Shown: positions 1 to 5,404 of the stretch, one piece after another
Layout of the letters: every line of letters starts with the position of its first letter
How positions within the stretch are numbered: position 1 is the first letter of the stretch
IMG/VR virus record: IMGVR_UViG_3300031237_000251
Length of the DNA: 64,000 nucleotides
Source: a virus
Strand: one strand, 5' to 3'
Program-made: the position numbers and the translations under genes
Notes under the pieces: generated by a model
What the model saw: only the letters and a program-made list of their open reading frames with translations
Told to the model about the DNA's origin: nothing
The model's database searches: none

Positions 1-17
1 CCATTTACCCACCCTAC
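1..17. repeat. Right end of a REP doublet, cut by the window edge
   Basis: ...tacccaccctac matches the 3' end of the copies at 1827-1901 and 3607-3681. Confidence 0.7.
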
Positions 18-61
18 GACTAGTGGTTCAACTTATCAGCCGTGGAGGCGAACCGCATGAA

Positions 62-162: not shown

Positions 163-428
163 ATGATCGAGAGTTTAATTATCGCCTAGGTATTAACCGT
201 AATAGCTTGCCTTGCGGTACTTCTCAAAAAAATAGTTCGCTAGCATTTTTCTGGGCGGACGTAACAATGATTACCGGTAGCGTTCTCACAGTGATCGGGT
301 TGATAACACTGGTTTCAACAGGGCTAACAGCTGCTCAAGAAACAGCAACCCAGTTAATTCTTATTACCGGCGAAGCAGTAGGAGGTAACTTCATTGCCCA
401 CGCCTTCACCTCTCACAGCAACGCATAA
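163..428 (+). pseudogene. Decayed cassette gene for a small membrane protein
   Basis: ATG at 163 gives MIESLIIA*VLTVIACLAVLLKK with an in-frame TAG at 187. A 1-nt-short A7 run (226-232) shifts into the hydrophobic frame of ORF 207-428, which ends at the attC R''. Confidence 0.65.
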
Positions 429-498
429 CAATTGGTTCAAACCGCTCGCCTCGCTCACTGGGACCGACTAAAGCCGGCCCATTAACCAAACGTTAGGA
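423..498 (+). other. Integron attC site (Pseudomonas chromosomal-integron type)
   Basis: GCATAAC-AATTGGTTCAA...TTAACCAAAC-GTTAGGA, 76 bp. Its R'' GCATAAC is exactly complementary to the GTTATGC that opens this cassette. Confidence 0.9.
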
Positions 499-508
499 AT
501 CTATCCAT

Positions 509-985
509 ATGCATCTGCCAACCTACCTTATTCTGATGGGCTCAGCCATCCTTTATGGTGTCGTGCGGGCTGTCGAGCTATGGCTTACGAATAAATTGCT
601 TTTTGCGGTTTCAGTGTTCACCACCTTGGTCACACTGACCGGTGCATTAATGCAGTCCGTAAATGCTGATGATTTCGAATTCAAATGGATGCTTTGGTAT
701 TTAATACCCGTTGGATTGTTGCTTCTCGGTGGTATTCTAGGCATCAACGAATTACAAGATGCTGCGCTTTCCAAGGTTGGTGTTCAACCGCCTTCGCATG
801 TTCTCCCTGGTGTAAGCAGTGACTACAAGCACGCCGCCTGGGGGCATTTTGCTTCAATGCTTTTTCCAATAGCAGCAGCACTCTTTGCGAAGTTGGTCCA
901 TTTTGGACTGAATAGCAGAAACACTGCCAAGCGCGTGGTGGTAGACAACGGCACAGCCTTGCCTACTAATGCCAACGATAGGTAA
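509..985 (+). CDS. Cassette-encoded multi-pass membrane protein, function unknown
   Basis: Starts 10 nt after the attC R'; about 4 hydrophobic segments; the 3' end reads into a degenerate REP copy. Confidence 0.75.
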   Translation: MHLPTYLILMGSAILYGVVRAVELWLTNKLLFAVSVFTTLVTLTGALMQSVNADDFEFKWMLWYLIPVGLLLLGGILGINELQDAALSKVGVQPPSHVLPGVSSDYKHAAWGHFASMLFPIAAALFAKLVHFGLNSRNTAKRVVVDNGTALPTNANDR

Positions 986-1010
986 TCATTGCACGAGCTA
1001 GCCACCCTAC
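935..1010. repeat. Degenerate GTAG-type REP doublet
   Basis: GGTAGACAACGGCACAGCCTTGCCTAC...GCCAACGATAGGTAATC...CCACCCTAC aligns end to end with 1827-1901. Confidence 0.75.
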
Positions 1011-1051
1011 CAACTCCAATCCACAATATAGATTTTACCTTGACAAGCAAA

Positions 1052-1807: not shown

Positions 1808-1826
1808 CAGACAGGGTAGTAAGCGC

Positions 1827-1901
1827 GTAGGGTAGACAACGGCGCAGCCTTGTCTACCGATGCCAACGGTTGGTAATCGCTCCGCGGGCTACCCACCCTA
1901 C
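1827..1901. repeat. GTAG-type REP doublet (two inverted REP hairpins)
   Basis: GTAG foot plus GGTAGACAA/TTGTCTACC hairpin, linker GCCAACGGTTGG, inverted second hairpin ending CCCTAC. Confidence 0.85.
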
Positions 1902-2256
1902 GGCTAATCACCACGCCCCCAAATGCCCGCTCCTCCCCGCCGGACCTTTCGCTCTCTCCATCCCCCCCTTCAGGCCACCTGGGTGCGGTAGGTGTGCTCG
2001 CTGGAGAGAAAGCGACGGGCGAACCTCTAGCTGGCGGAGAGCTGAGAATCAATCGCTGCCTATGCGTAGTAGCTCATTGATATGGCTAGATCAGCCACCC
2101 CTGATGTATAACTGCCGGCCGTAGTCAGAAAGTCTTCGACACTCGAGACTAGATAGAGGAAGTAAATGTGATAATAAATCTCATACACTGCGCCCACCTA
2201 GGGAGTCAGGCACTAATTAGTACCCAAGGATCATTGTATCTCGAAGGAAATCTCGC

Positions 2257-2661: not shown

Positions 2662-2745
2662 GTAGGGTAGACAACGGCGCAGCCTTGTCTACCGTTCCTA
2701 ACGGTTAGCAAGCAAGTAGGTTAAATAAGGACGCAGCCTTGTTTT
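2662..2745. repeat. Single REP hairpin (2662-2693) plus a second very degenerate copy (2716-2745)
   Basis: GTAGGGTAGACAACGGCGCAGCCTTGTCTACC is exact; GTAGGTTAAATAAGGACGCAGCCTTG is degenerate. Confidence 0.75.
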
Positions 2746-2900
2746 TTGGGTGAGCGGAACCGTGCGGGTTGGCGGACCGGTACAGGGACCGACAGGCTGA
2801 GAGACCGCCACAAACGGCCCGCCCATAATGGGTGCAAGCCATCCCGTGGACACAGAAAACCGCTCTAACGGCGGTCTGTGTCCGCCAACGAGCTCCGGGA
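2745..2900 (-). other. Structured phage-type c4/ash-like leader remnant
   Basis: Perfect 10-bp IR GTTGGCGGAC (2768-2777)/GTCCGCCAAC (2880-2889); stem GGACACAG/CTGTGTCC (2848-2883); minus-strand peptide ...IMGGP...GPPTRTVPLT recalls Ash-family ORFs (from memory). Confidence 0.4.
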
Positions 2901-2922
2901 CAGACCATCCTATCGTTCGCCT

Positions 2923-2968
2923 CGCTAACTGGACTATCAAAAGCTACGCTTTGGCTTCCCTGTTAGCT
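2923..2968 (+). other. Short degenerate attC-like site
   Basis: CGCTAAC...CAAAAGC-TAC-GCTTTGG...GTTAGCT; only 46 bp, shorter than canonical attC, but positioned just upstream of ORF 3010. Confidence 0.45.
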
Positions 2969-3009
2969 TAATCGCTAGTCTCTTTGGCCATCTGCCCTGG
3001 GAGATATAC

Positions 3010-3567
3010 ATGGCAACGAACAACGGCCCATATTTTAGGCATTTACACCAAGAATATACCGCCATGGCTGCGAGAGTCGACGCGTACTCCACTGGCACAT
3101 TTGATGATTTCAAACTCTTTGCCGCTTTGGGTGCCCTCCTTGCCTGGAAGCCCATCGCAGATAGTTTTAGTGGTTCAGAAAAGAAACCCATAGTGCTTTT
3201 CTTGGGCTTCTTAGCAATTGCCGCTTTAGTCGTAATCATGGAAGCCCGTTCACTATTGAAGCTTTCCCTGATTCGTTACTACATGGAAAGATTGAACGAT
3301 ATTGAGACTGAAATGATCGAGTTTTCTCCCAATAAATCGACAAAGGCATTTAACATCGCACACTGCTGGGACAATTGGTATGAGAAGATACATCGCCCCA
3401 TCGGGAAGCTTTACCACGCCTTCCTATATGGGACTATCGTATTCTTGCCGATGGTCATTATTGCCTTTTCCTACAGATCTCTGTTTCTGGCCTTTCTTTA
3501 CGTAGTAATTACAGCCACTCTCTGTATCAAACTCCACCACGCTGCATTGGCTCTCACGAGAAAGTAA
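3010..3567 (+). CDS. Cassette-encoded 4-TM membrane protein, function unknown
   Basis: AT-rich ORF with 4 hydrophobic segments, preceded by GTTAGCT and followed by GGCTAAC. Confidence 0.75.
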   Translation: MATNNGPYFRHLHQEYTAMAARVDAYSTGTFDDFKLFAALGALLAWKPIADSFSGSEKKPIVLFLGFLAIAALVVIMEARSLLKLSLIRYYMERLNDIETEMIEFSPNKSTKAFNIAHCWDNWYEKIHRPIGKLYHAFLYGTIVFLPMVIIAFSYRSLFLAFLYVVITATLCIKLHHAALALTRK

Positions 3568-3580
3568 TGCGCTGTTTGAT

Positions 3581-3600
3581 GGCTAACACGGAATTCAAGC
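3581..3600 (+). other. Left half of an attC, truncated at a REP
   Basis: GGCTAAC-ACGGAATTCAAGC resembles the R''/L'' start of 423-498; no L' or R' follows, and the REP begins at 3607. Confidence 0.55.
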
Positions 3601-3606
3601 AAGCAA

Positions 3607-3681
3607 GTAGGGTAGACAACGGCACAGCCTTGTCTACCGATGCCAACGGTGGGTAATCGCTACGCGAGTTATCCACCCTAC
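3607..3681. repeat. GTAG-type REP doublet
   Basis: Near-identical to 1827-1901; similarity continues downstream through a terminator-like hairpin AAAGGCCCG/CGGGCCTTT. Confidence 0.85.
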
Positions 3682-3980
3682 GACTGACCGCCACACAGCC
3701 GCTCAAAGGCCCGCCCCTCCCCGCCGGGCCTTTCGCTTTCCAGACACCACTCCCCCTTCACGCCATCTCCACTTACACCCGCCACACCGCCTATTTCTGA
3801 ACAGGACAGGGCACCTGCTTGGCCTTACCCCAGCGTGCCAAGCGCGAGACTTTTCATGCCTCTCGAAAAATTAATTACCTGCGGAATTGATATATAAATA
3901 ACCGGCGGATATAGTAGGTCATGCAGGCGATCAGCACCTAACAGATCGCGATTCTCTCCACCACAGAGATGAGGCCCACC

Positions 3981-4163
3981 ATGCACACCACCGCCACCCT
4001 GCACGTCCATCCGGCGTGCGCCTCCAACCGCCAACTGATCGAGCGCCTCCAGGCCGCGACCGGCCGTCTCGTCGTCGTTCGCGGCGGCAAGCCCAGGCTC
4101 AGCGAGCGCAAGACGCCCCTGCCCGCCCCCTTCGACCCGAACGACGGAGGGTTCGCCGCATGA
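3981..4163 (+). CDS. Small hypothetical protein typical of Pseudomonas phage or island early regions
   Basis: MHTTATLHVHP... with an RBS-like GAGG; ATGA overlap with the next ORF. Confidence 0.6.
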   Translation: MHTTATLHVHPACASNRQLIERLQAATGRLVVVRGGKPRLSERKTPLPAPFDPNDGGFAA

Positions 4164-4236
4164 GCAGGCTTCAGCTATCGGCCAATGCCGGCGTGCGTCT
4201 CAGGGCTCAACTGAACCTGAGCGGCACCTTCACCCA
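4160..4236 (+). pseudogene. 5' fragment of a hypothetical gene fused out of frame to the integrase
   Basis: ATG 4160 MSRLQLSANAGVRLRAQLNLSGTFTH, after which the sequence switches to the integrase frame. Confidence 0.5.
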
Positions 4237-5214
4237 TACTACTACCTGGGCAAGGACGAGAACGGCAAGCGCAAGGAAATCCCTCTCGGGACCGACCTCA
4301 ACGAGGCACGTATCGAGTGGGCACGCCTGGAGCGCACAACCACTCCGAAGGTCGTCCGCTTCATGAAGGAGCTATTCGACCGGTATGAGCGCGAGATCAT
4401 TCCCACCAAGGCTCCCCGCACCCAGGCCGATAACCGGACCGAACTGAAGAATCTGCGTAGGGCGTTTGACTCTGCTCCTATCGAGGCAATCACGCCGCAC
4501 ATAGTTGCCCAGTACCGAGATGGTCGCTCAGCGAAAACCCGCGGCAACCGCGAGATCGCCTTGATGTCCCACGTCTTCACGATGGCTCGTGAGTGGGGCC
4601 ACACCGACAAGGAAAACCCCTGCGCTCGCGTGCGGCGTAACAAGGAAAAAGCCAGAGGCTACTACGCAGCGGACGACGTCTGGTCGGCTGTCTACGCCCA
4701 GGCCTGCCAGGAACTGCGCGATGCGATGGATCTGGCCTACCTCACGGGCCAGCGGCCTGCCGACACCCTAAAGGCATGCACTGGCGATCTGAGTGGAGAG
4801 TTCCTGCTTGTGGCCCAGGGCAAGACGAACAAAAAGCTCCGTATCCGGCTCTACGATGGGGAGCGGGCGACAGGCCTTGGCCAGTTCATCGACGGATTGC
4901 TGGAAAGGCGCAAGCTTGCAGGCATAACCAGCTCCAGGCTGATCACCAACGCCGGAGGTCTGCGCCTGAGCTACGCCATGATGCGTAACCGATGGGACGA
5001 GGCCAGGTCGAAGGCTGCAGCCACTGCATTGGCGAACGGCGACGAGCCCCTGGCCCAGCGGATCAAACAGTTCCGCTTTAGTGATATCCGGCCGAAGGCG
5101 GCCAGTGAAATCGATAGCTTGACCGAGGCTAGCCGGCTTCTTGGACACACCAAGGAGCAGATCACCAAGACGGTTTACCGGCGTGTCGGCGAAGTTGTGA
5201 ACCCAACCCGCTGA
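4237..5214 (+). pseudogene. int: Phage tyrosine integrase lacking its native start codon
   Basis: Catalytic motifs GQRPAD, QGKT, SDIRPKAAS, LLGHT and VYRR are intact. Integrase-like YYYLGKDENGKRKEIPLG starts at 4237, but the first in-frame ATG is at 4363. Confidence 0.8.
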
Positions 5215-5314: not shown

Positions 5315-5361
5315 TGGAGGCCGAGGTCGGAATCGAACCGGCGTACACGGATTTGCAATCC
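5315..5361 (-). tRNA. 3' part of tRNA-Cys(GCA) acting as an att site; not a complete tRNA
   Basis: Minus strand GGATTGCAAATCC-GTGTAC-GCCGGTTCGATTCCGAC-CTCGGCCTCCA has the anticodon arm, T-arm and CCA; the D-arm and 5' acceptor strand are absent. Confidence 0.9.
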
Positions 5362-5404
5362 GATATAAAAAGCCAGGCATCACGCGGCTTACAGGCGAAG
5401 CGGC

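Follow-up and report, generated by a model that had tools for sequence, protein, structure and literature searches.

The window analysed here is a stretch of 64,000 nucleotides from the IMG/VR virus record IMGVR_UViG_3300031237_000251, in which the first 3.8 kb form a low-GC segment (~48% GC, compared with ~65% further on). This segment contains small ORFs located on the same strand, which belong to no Pfam family, with repeats in between (Table 1). The intact canonical attC site close to its left end has the order GCATAAC, 5 nt, GTTCAAAC, central region, L' and GTTAGGA, and is near-identical to an intact attC of genome G002 (L050:824-899). The four intact attCs of G002 share the form xxCTAAC-N5-GYTCAARY ... 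TTAxCx-N4/5-GTTRGSY, referred to below as the genus form. This canonical attC and its match to the G002 sites place the start of the window inside an integron array; the window thus begins within the distal part of a chromosomal array, whose cassettes read from left to right. tblastn searches with the IntI of G005 (E values up to 1) revealed no intI in the window, and the integrase, if there is one, would lie to its left. The nearest genome, that of Azotobacter bryophylli KCTC 62195 (G001), has no intI above the cut-off of the TIGR02249 family, though cassette clusters are present in it. The attC sites were located using a hand-written scanner, which is crude and misses many real sites.

Table 1. 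Features of the array segment of the window (plain coordinates) and of the REP-attC junctions found in the same register at other loci (locus identifiers)
Feature	Location	Strand	Description
REP right arm	6-22		Right arm alone
Intact canonical attC	423-498	+	GCATAAC ... GTTAGGA; internal reference for the array
Diverged REP doublet	927-1023		Linker holds the stop codon of ORF 509-985
Second doublet with tail	1818-1980	+	Mid-array, after ORF 1052-1807; 87% identity to 3598-3694
Degenerate REP	2704-2745		Begins directly after an R'-like end, as in L065
Decayed attC	2910-2980	+	Opens the ORF 3010 cassette; central motif, L' and R' left, left half gone
ORF 3010-3567	3010-3567	+	Last cassette of the array; 185 aa, predicted membrane protein, no Pfam family
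attC R'' box	3581-3587	+	GGCTAAC; 14 nt past the ORF stop; kept in L001
Spacer	3588-3592	+	ACGGA, 5 nt
L'' box	3593-3600	+	ATTCAAGC, 8 nt; fits the genus L'' form GYTCAARY, but its last 4 nt double as the REP's 5' flank
REP 5' extension	3601-3606	+	AAGCAA; AAGC is a tandem copy, absent from L001
REP arm 1	3607-3638	+	32 nt; GTAG foot, 9-bp stem (3611-3619 with 3630-3638), 10-nt loop
Linker	3639-3649	+	11 nt
Inverted REP arm 2	3650-3681	+	Ends in CTAC; with arm 1 forms a REPIN-type doublet
Tail travelling with the doublet	3682-3768	+	Conserved; 9-bp GC-rich hairpin at 3705-3733
Junction 1	L001		Form of the window cassette at offset 15
Junctions 2 and 3	L011:3568, L012:4959		Two cassettes of G001
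Junctions 4 and 5	L078:11636, L078:12197		Two cassettes on one metagenome contig
Junction 6	L042:2734		A. chroococcum; less certain, array membership doubtful

The cassette of ORF 3010-3567 (stop codon TAA at 3565-3567) opens with a decayed attC, whose R' reads GCTAGTC at 2974-2980 with GTT mutated to GCT. The same mutated form is found in L001, a contig of 987 nt, and intact homologues of this attC are present in G001 (L012:3856-3943) and G002 (L050:3206-3281). Its left half seems to have been lost by deletion relative to G001. The sequence GTTAGCT at 2962 was rejected as the R' opening this cassette, because it corresponds to the L' box by homology with the intact sites. Decay elsewhere in the array consists of point mutation and unrelated deletion.

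Several other elements lie in or near the array. A phage-type integrase with Int_N and Phage_integrase domains is encoded at 4363-5214 (+), just past the array end, and adjoins a tRNA-like fragment at 5318-5389 (-) with a score of 25.5 bits, which is below the threshold. In G001, a tRNA and an integrase likewise adjoin a cassette cluster (L011:680-1830). A second class of repeats, ~110 nt long and with inverted GGTGTATAAC ... GTTATACACC as its boundaries, is located upstream of cassette ORFs in G001 (L012:3316-3430; L011:2640-2750 and 4080-4190) and may represent either a further kind of attC or a different structured element. The window carries a decayed copy of it, plus a left part cut by REP at 2657 (sites 2104-2195 and 2624-2650). 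The structured element at 2746-2830 (-) resembles the Rfam C4 antisense RNA (RF01695; E = 0.0014), with 33.6 bits against a gathering score of 45. It is 98% conserved in L001 and has a homologue at L012:3040-3130, at the edge of a G001 cassette cluster and adjoining a high-GC gene.

According to the original prediction, half an attC runs directly into a REP sequence behind ORF 3010, with no L' or R' afterwards, and this description is borne out by the sequence. The GGCTAAC box at 3581-3587 matches the R'' consensus RYYYAAC at six of seven positions and fits the genus form xxCTAAC, and the geometry of R'', spacer and L'' at 3581-3600 is identical to that of the canonical attC at 423-442. The pattern TAAC-N5-RTTCAARC has two matches in 64 kb, one in the canonical attC (426-442) and one in the stump, compared with 0.04 expected, a test of rarity that is not fully independent, because the pattern was generalised from both matched sites. 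No R' or L' for the stump was found within 400 nt downstream, where the best candidate was matched or beaten by 38% of shuffled sequences. The stretch between 3687 and 3900 contains no GTT, and the conserved central attC motif of this clade is present in the window at 445 and 2916 only, with none after 3600. Geometry, agreement with the genus consensus, array context, the attC remnant opening the cassette and a cassette-borne homologue of ORF 3010 (see below) together support the assignment of 3581-3600 as a real attC remnant within a real cassette array.

The sole close homologue of the ORF 3010 cassette is found in L001, which has 2666-3656 in common with the window at 94% identity overall. 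The homologous ORF of L001 is 88% identical (92% at the DNA level) and ends in the same 3' junction, the window differing by one additional AAGC unit. The attC-REP join is old, since it is common to L001, whose ORF is just 92% identical in DNA. Along the alignment, identity between the window and L001 declines from 100% (2666-2745) through 98% and 95.5% to 92% in the ORF and 89% in the 3' flank, and the N-terminal 16 residues of the two proteins are completely different. Together, these two features suggest a recombination boundary within the ORF 3010 cassette. L001 is already joined to REP, and neither an empty site nor an intermediate was found for this cassette. Cassette DNA had no match in six genomes of the genus, and a protein-based scan of metagenome contigs gave no relatives of ORF 3010.

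More distant homologues of ORF 3010 differ in their surroundings. In a Rhodocyclaceae MAG (L002), a 52%-identical homologue resides in a cassette array, with an R''-like box overlapping its stop codon and a canonical attC (L002:4237-4307) after the next cassette. An IS110/IS1111-family element with 12-bp inverted repeats (L002:2290-3702) is positioned ~20 nt past the stop codon of this homologue, directly after an R''-like GGGTAAC. No attC was found following the ~35%-identical homologues in L047, L048 and L049. These neighbourhoods indicate only that the protein family of ORF 3010 is not exclusively cassette-borne.

The sequence joined to the attC stump is a REP doublet, for which folding predicts the two hairpins whichever strand is taken (z = -2.6 on the + strand). 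Both here and among the closest relatives of the window, the doublet often carries a tail of about 85 nt, with which it makes up a composite repeat of ~170 nt. The tail was also identified at 1907-1980 of the window, on contig C29 of G001 at 276 kb (276200-276900; two tandem copies) and in L078, L062 and L056, and its hairpin was not called as a terminator by a simple terminator scan. The REP core has three matches in the window at up to 3 mismatches, with none expected, and the five REP copies of the window all fall within 3.7 kb, leaving the remaining 60 kb free of them. ORF 509-985 reads through into the diverged doublet at 927-1023 and has its stop codon in the linker of the doublet, so that the doublet seems to have taken the place of this cassette gene's original 3' end and attC.

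Beyond the window, G001 carries 15 copies of the 32-mer on seven contigs (up to 3 mismatches), six of which are located in two cassette clusters of less than 2 kb each. Exact 28-mers were found in Azotobacter beijerinckii, A. vinelandii, A. chroococcum, Azorhizophilus paspali, Geopseudomonas sagittaria and several Pseudomonas species, as well as in 30 metagenome contigs, and exact or near-exact copies are known from at least 8 named species. With 95 copies over 21 genome loci and 30 metagenome loci, the repeat is a true dispersed REP, usually in the form of an inverted REPIN-type doublet. The family lies mostly outside arrays, and low-GC, cassette-like DNA borders roughly half of the copies sampled.

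This distribution bears on the role of the doublets within the array. We rejected the idea that they are the integron's own attC sites, because REP copies are also scattered outside arrays and canonical attCs are present within this one. The doublet might instead act as a surrogate, replacing attC as a site for IntI or RAYT so that the cassettes are still mobile, and behind four ORFs of the window a doublet does occupy the expected place of an attC; the minus strand of the doublet also has AAC ... GTT boxes ~60 nt apart in a rough attC geometry. However, the doublet is much more stable as a pair of separate REP hairpins than in any attC-like fold, it shows neither L''/L' complementarity nor cassette-specific R''/R' pairing, the window and L001 share a frozen arrangement, and most of the family lies outside arrays. 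We consider such a surrogate function exceedingly improbable.

The proposal that a REP insertion would terminate the array did not hold. A doublet with its tail also occurs mid-array, at 1818-1980, and new cassettes enter an integron at attI, the other end of the array.

To determine how REP copies are positioned relative to attC sequences, we collected all REP copies from genome and metagenome loci fetched regardless of context, a total of 95 copies, which have 79 different left flanks. The register was measured as the position where TAAC ends relative to GTAGGG of the REP. TAAC ended at an offset of 15 nt in 6/79 flanks, compared with 0 or 1 flank at each of 39 other offsets, an observation resting on six junctions from short contigs with partly assigned taxonomy. 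The window itself has an offset of 19 owing to its AAGC unit and was counted in the form of L001. All six in-register flanks adjoin low-GC DNA, and the pattern is present in none of 38 high-GC flanks. Their layout is the same throughout: the 7-nt R'' and a spacer of 5 nt come first, then a box of 8 nt with AGC at its end, and GTAGGG follows after another 2 nt. Since the R'' and spacer sequences all differ, the six junctions represent independent attCs. The AGC is not specific to these junctions: it is found at -5 to -3, 2 nt before GTAGGG, in 59/79 REP copies in any context, and the junction thus falls in bases shared by attC and REP. Further, the array in L078 closes with another cassette than that of the window, behind which come half an attC in register, a doublet, the same tail and then high-GC toxin-antitoxin genes. 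The join is present in L001, and the same attC position recurs in six cassettes including those of other genomes. The recurrence links the loss of the right half to the REP boundary, rather than to a deletion unrelated to it.

The same data allow the attC assignment itself to be weighed. GGCTAAC ... ATTCAAGC might be no attC remnant, with the doublet merely filling the 3' intergenic space and the attC either never there or lost for unrelated reasons. This would agree with the fact that half of the L'' box, namely its last 3-4 nt (AGC/AAGC), doubles as the REP's own 5' flank, with the weaker box in L001, which reads ATTCCAGC and overlaps the REP flank, and with the ~35%-identical homologues that lack an attC after them. 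Against a coincidence stand the occurrence of the left-half pattern at two sites where 0.04 are expected, the register peak of six against a maximum of one at other offsets, the attC remnant opening the cassette and the cassette-borne 52%-identical homologue. These observations make a chance resemblance very unlikely.

The right halves were searched for at each junction as an R' complementary to its own R'' and preceded by an L' complementary to L'', within 400 nt. Right halves were absent from six of the seven junctions tested and marginal in the seventh (L012:4959), and none of the candidates beats shuffled sequence convincingly. At L012:4959, a plausible L'-5 nt-GTTAGGA is located ~150 nt past a single REP, and 9% of shuffled sequences score as well. 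The junction in L062 falls inside the loop of the variable stem, also after AGC, with nothing of the attC to its right. L065 has an array that ends in a complete attC-like site, which folds poorly, and the doublet of L065 follows the R' (GTTAGC) of that site without a gap.

The lack of right halves is central to the question of whether the doublet was inserted into the attC. The original prediction proposed that REP doublets target single-stranded, folded attC. In one version of this scenario, a doublet mobilised by RAYT would have entered single-stranded or folded attC 3' of AGC, at the boundary between L'' and the stem-loop, and the right half would have been lost later. The register fixed in six cassettes is consistent with targeting, as is the strong concentration of REPs in arrays (6/15 in G001), and L012:4936-5116 may keep a right half. 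The AGC preceding most copies resembles the conserved target 5' of IS200/IS605 elements (PMC8266576), and known attC-targeting elements sit near the attC 5' end, often in the last cassette (PMC3001079). However, insertion predicts that right halves are kept; their absence argues against a plain insertion, and a second loss step is needed. In addition, PF01797 searches revealed no RAYT in G001 or in the window, the related Y1 transposases of G002-G005 are IS200-like and lack flanking copies of the window's REP family, and the RAYT cleavage sites in the literature are CT or CA, not AGC (PMC8266576). Thus, the fixed register between REP and attC speaks for the proposed targeting, whereas insertion into a folded attC is not supported by the junctions, and we regard a targeted insertion with later loss of the right half as rather unlikely but as a serious rival to the reading favoured below.

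Homologous recombination between REPs after an insertion at L'' was also considered and is insufficient alone, because recombinants between two REPs inserted at L'' would retain a right half, which was seen in none. In G002, an otherwise healthy array has an IS200/IS605-type Y1 transposase element with terminal hairpins (L050:1350-1960), inserted just behind the R' of an intact attC.

A broader form of the targeting idea, in which the REP family, via RAYT, recognises folded attC at the boundary between L'' and the stem-loop and converts attCs to doublets, is in our view doubtful. If true, it would define a third class of attC parasite, which is non-coding, progressively fossilises chromosomal arrays and fixes cassettes.

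The reading that we favour, with moderate confidence, is that a REP-linked deletion removed the attC from the end of L'' onwards. In this reading, 3581-3600 are what survives (R'', spacer and L'') of the attC that belonged to the most distal cassette of a decaying chromosomal array in an Azotobacter-group host, and the REP doublet would have lain just beyond this attC beforehand. The stump, the identity of the REP, the recurrent register and the consistent lack of right halves are shown by the sequences, and we infer from them the order of events, the deletion mechanism and the enzyme. The deletion would have taken the variable stem-loop, L' and R', with its right end at the 5' edge of the doublet. 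At the break, the AGC at the base of the attC hairpin would meet the AGC at the base of the REP hairpin, and these shared bases would permit a short-homology deletion by slippage or template switching, stimulated by the hairpins. A short-homology deletion at the shared AGC would also account for the recurrence of one register among unrelated cassettes. Alternatively, RAYT may have helped, or the deletion may have arisen by aberrant RAYT cutting and rejoining.

Two further observations can be placed in the framework of a REP-linked deletion. The difference in AAGC copy number between the window and L001 may represent a signature of slippage at the junction. The doublet of L065, which comes right after R', is a candidate for the precursor state, from which a deletion between the AGC of L'' and the AGC at the REP edge would yield precisely the join observed; the degenerate REP at 2704-2745 of the window begins in the same way. 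The deletion reading requires a REP to be present beside each affected attC in advance. By analogy with IS200/IS605, the AGC could instead be an insertion target, not shared homology.

The outcome of the deletion would be a cassette without a crossover site, which is not excisable by IntI and is inherited as fixed chromosomal DNA. The ORF 3010 cassette is predicted to be beyond excision, since its own attC has no crossover site and the upstream attC has lost its left half and carries a mutated R'. Its arrangement has been fixed for some time, as 2666-3656 is common to L001. The upstream attC (GCTAGTC, left half missing) is dead independently of the REP join.

Several known systems share features with this locus. 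IS1111-attC elements (ISPa21, ISPst6 and ISKpn4) have a size of 1.2-1.5 kb, encode a DEDD transposase, use RNA-guided targeting and leave both attC halves in place. In contrast, the element described here is a non-coding REP doublet (~85 nt), and the attC has lost its right half. IS1111-attC elements sit specifically in attC near its 5' end and block cassette mobility (PMC3001079, PMC11187229). The two cases are alike in that mobile DNA resides in attC, and the 52%-identical cassette homologue in L002 carries an element of the IS110/IS1111 family. Group IIC-attC introns are retroelements, which enter the bottom strand and divide the attC while preserving all of it. The ORF 3010 cassette shares with them the association with attC and the last position in the array, but it contains no intron RNA or reverse transcriptase, and Rfam gave just the weak C4-like match nearby. 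These introns target attC through its folded or palindromic nature and are found mostly in the last cassette of the array (PMC3001079).

The doublet has the GTAG foot, hairpin, inverted arrangement and dispersed extragenic copies of the REP/BIME/REPIN sequences associated with RAYT (TnpA-REP) (PMC8266576). Unlike these systems, it has no cognate RAYT in the nearest genome or the window, its copy number is low, and a subset of its copies is fused to L'' in register. The distal array position, the degenerate attCs and the lack of an integrase in view are shared with CALINs and decaying chromosomal arrays, such as those of Xanthomonas. However, part of the decay here is systematic and tied to one repeat family, and is not random mutation alone. 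To our knowledge, only IS1111-attC elements and IIC-attC introns are recognised as attacking attC, and what is known of REPs is that IS110/IS1111 elements target them, not that they occupy attC. Full-text searches of the literature gave no report of REP-attC fusions.

In practical terms, tools based on attC models will cut arrays short at such joins and miss the further cassettes. The halting of array shuffling, through which cassettes turn into ordinary fixed genes, is a poorly understood process, and a REP family repeatedly fused at one attC position, where the crossover site is lost, would bring a small, non-coding participant into it. Such REP-attC fusion would also link two systems built on hairpins in single-stranded DNA, integrons and REP/RAYT.
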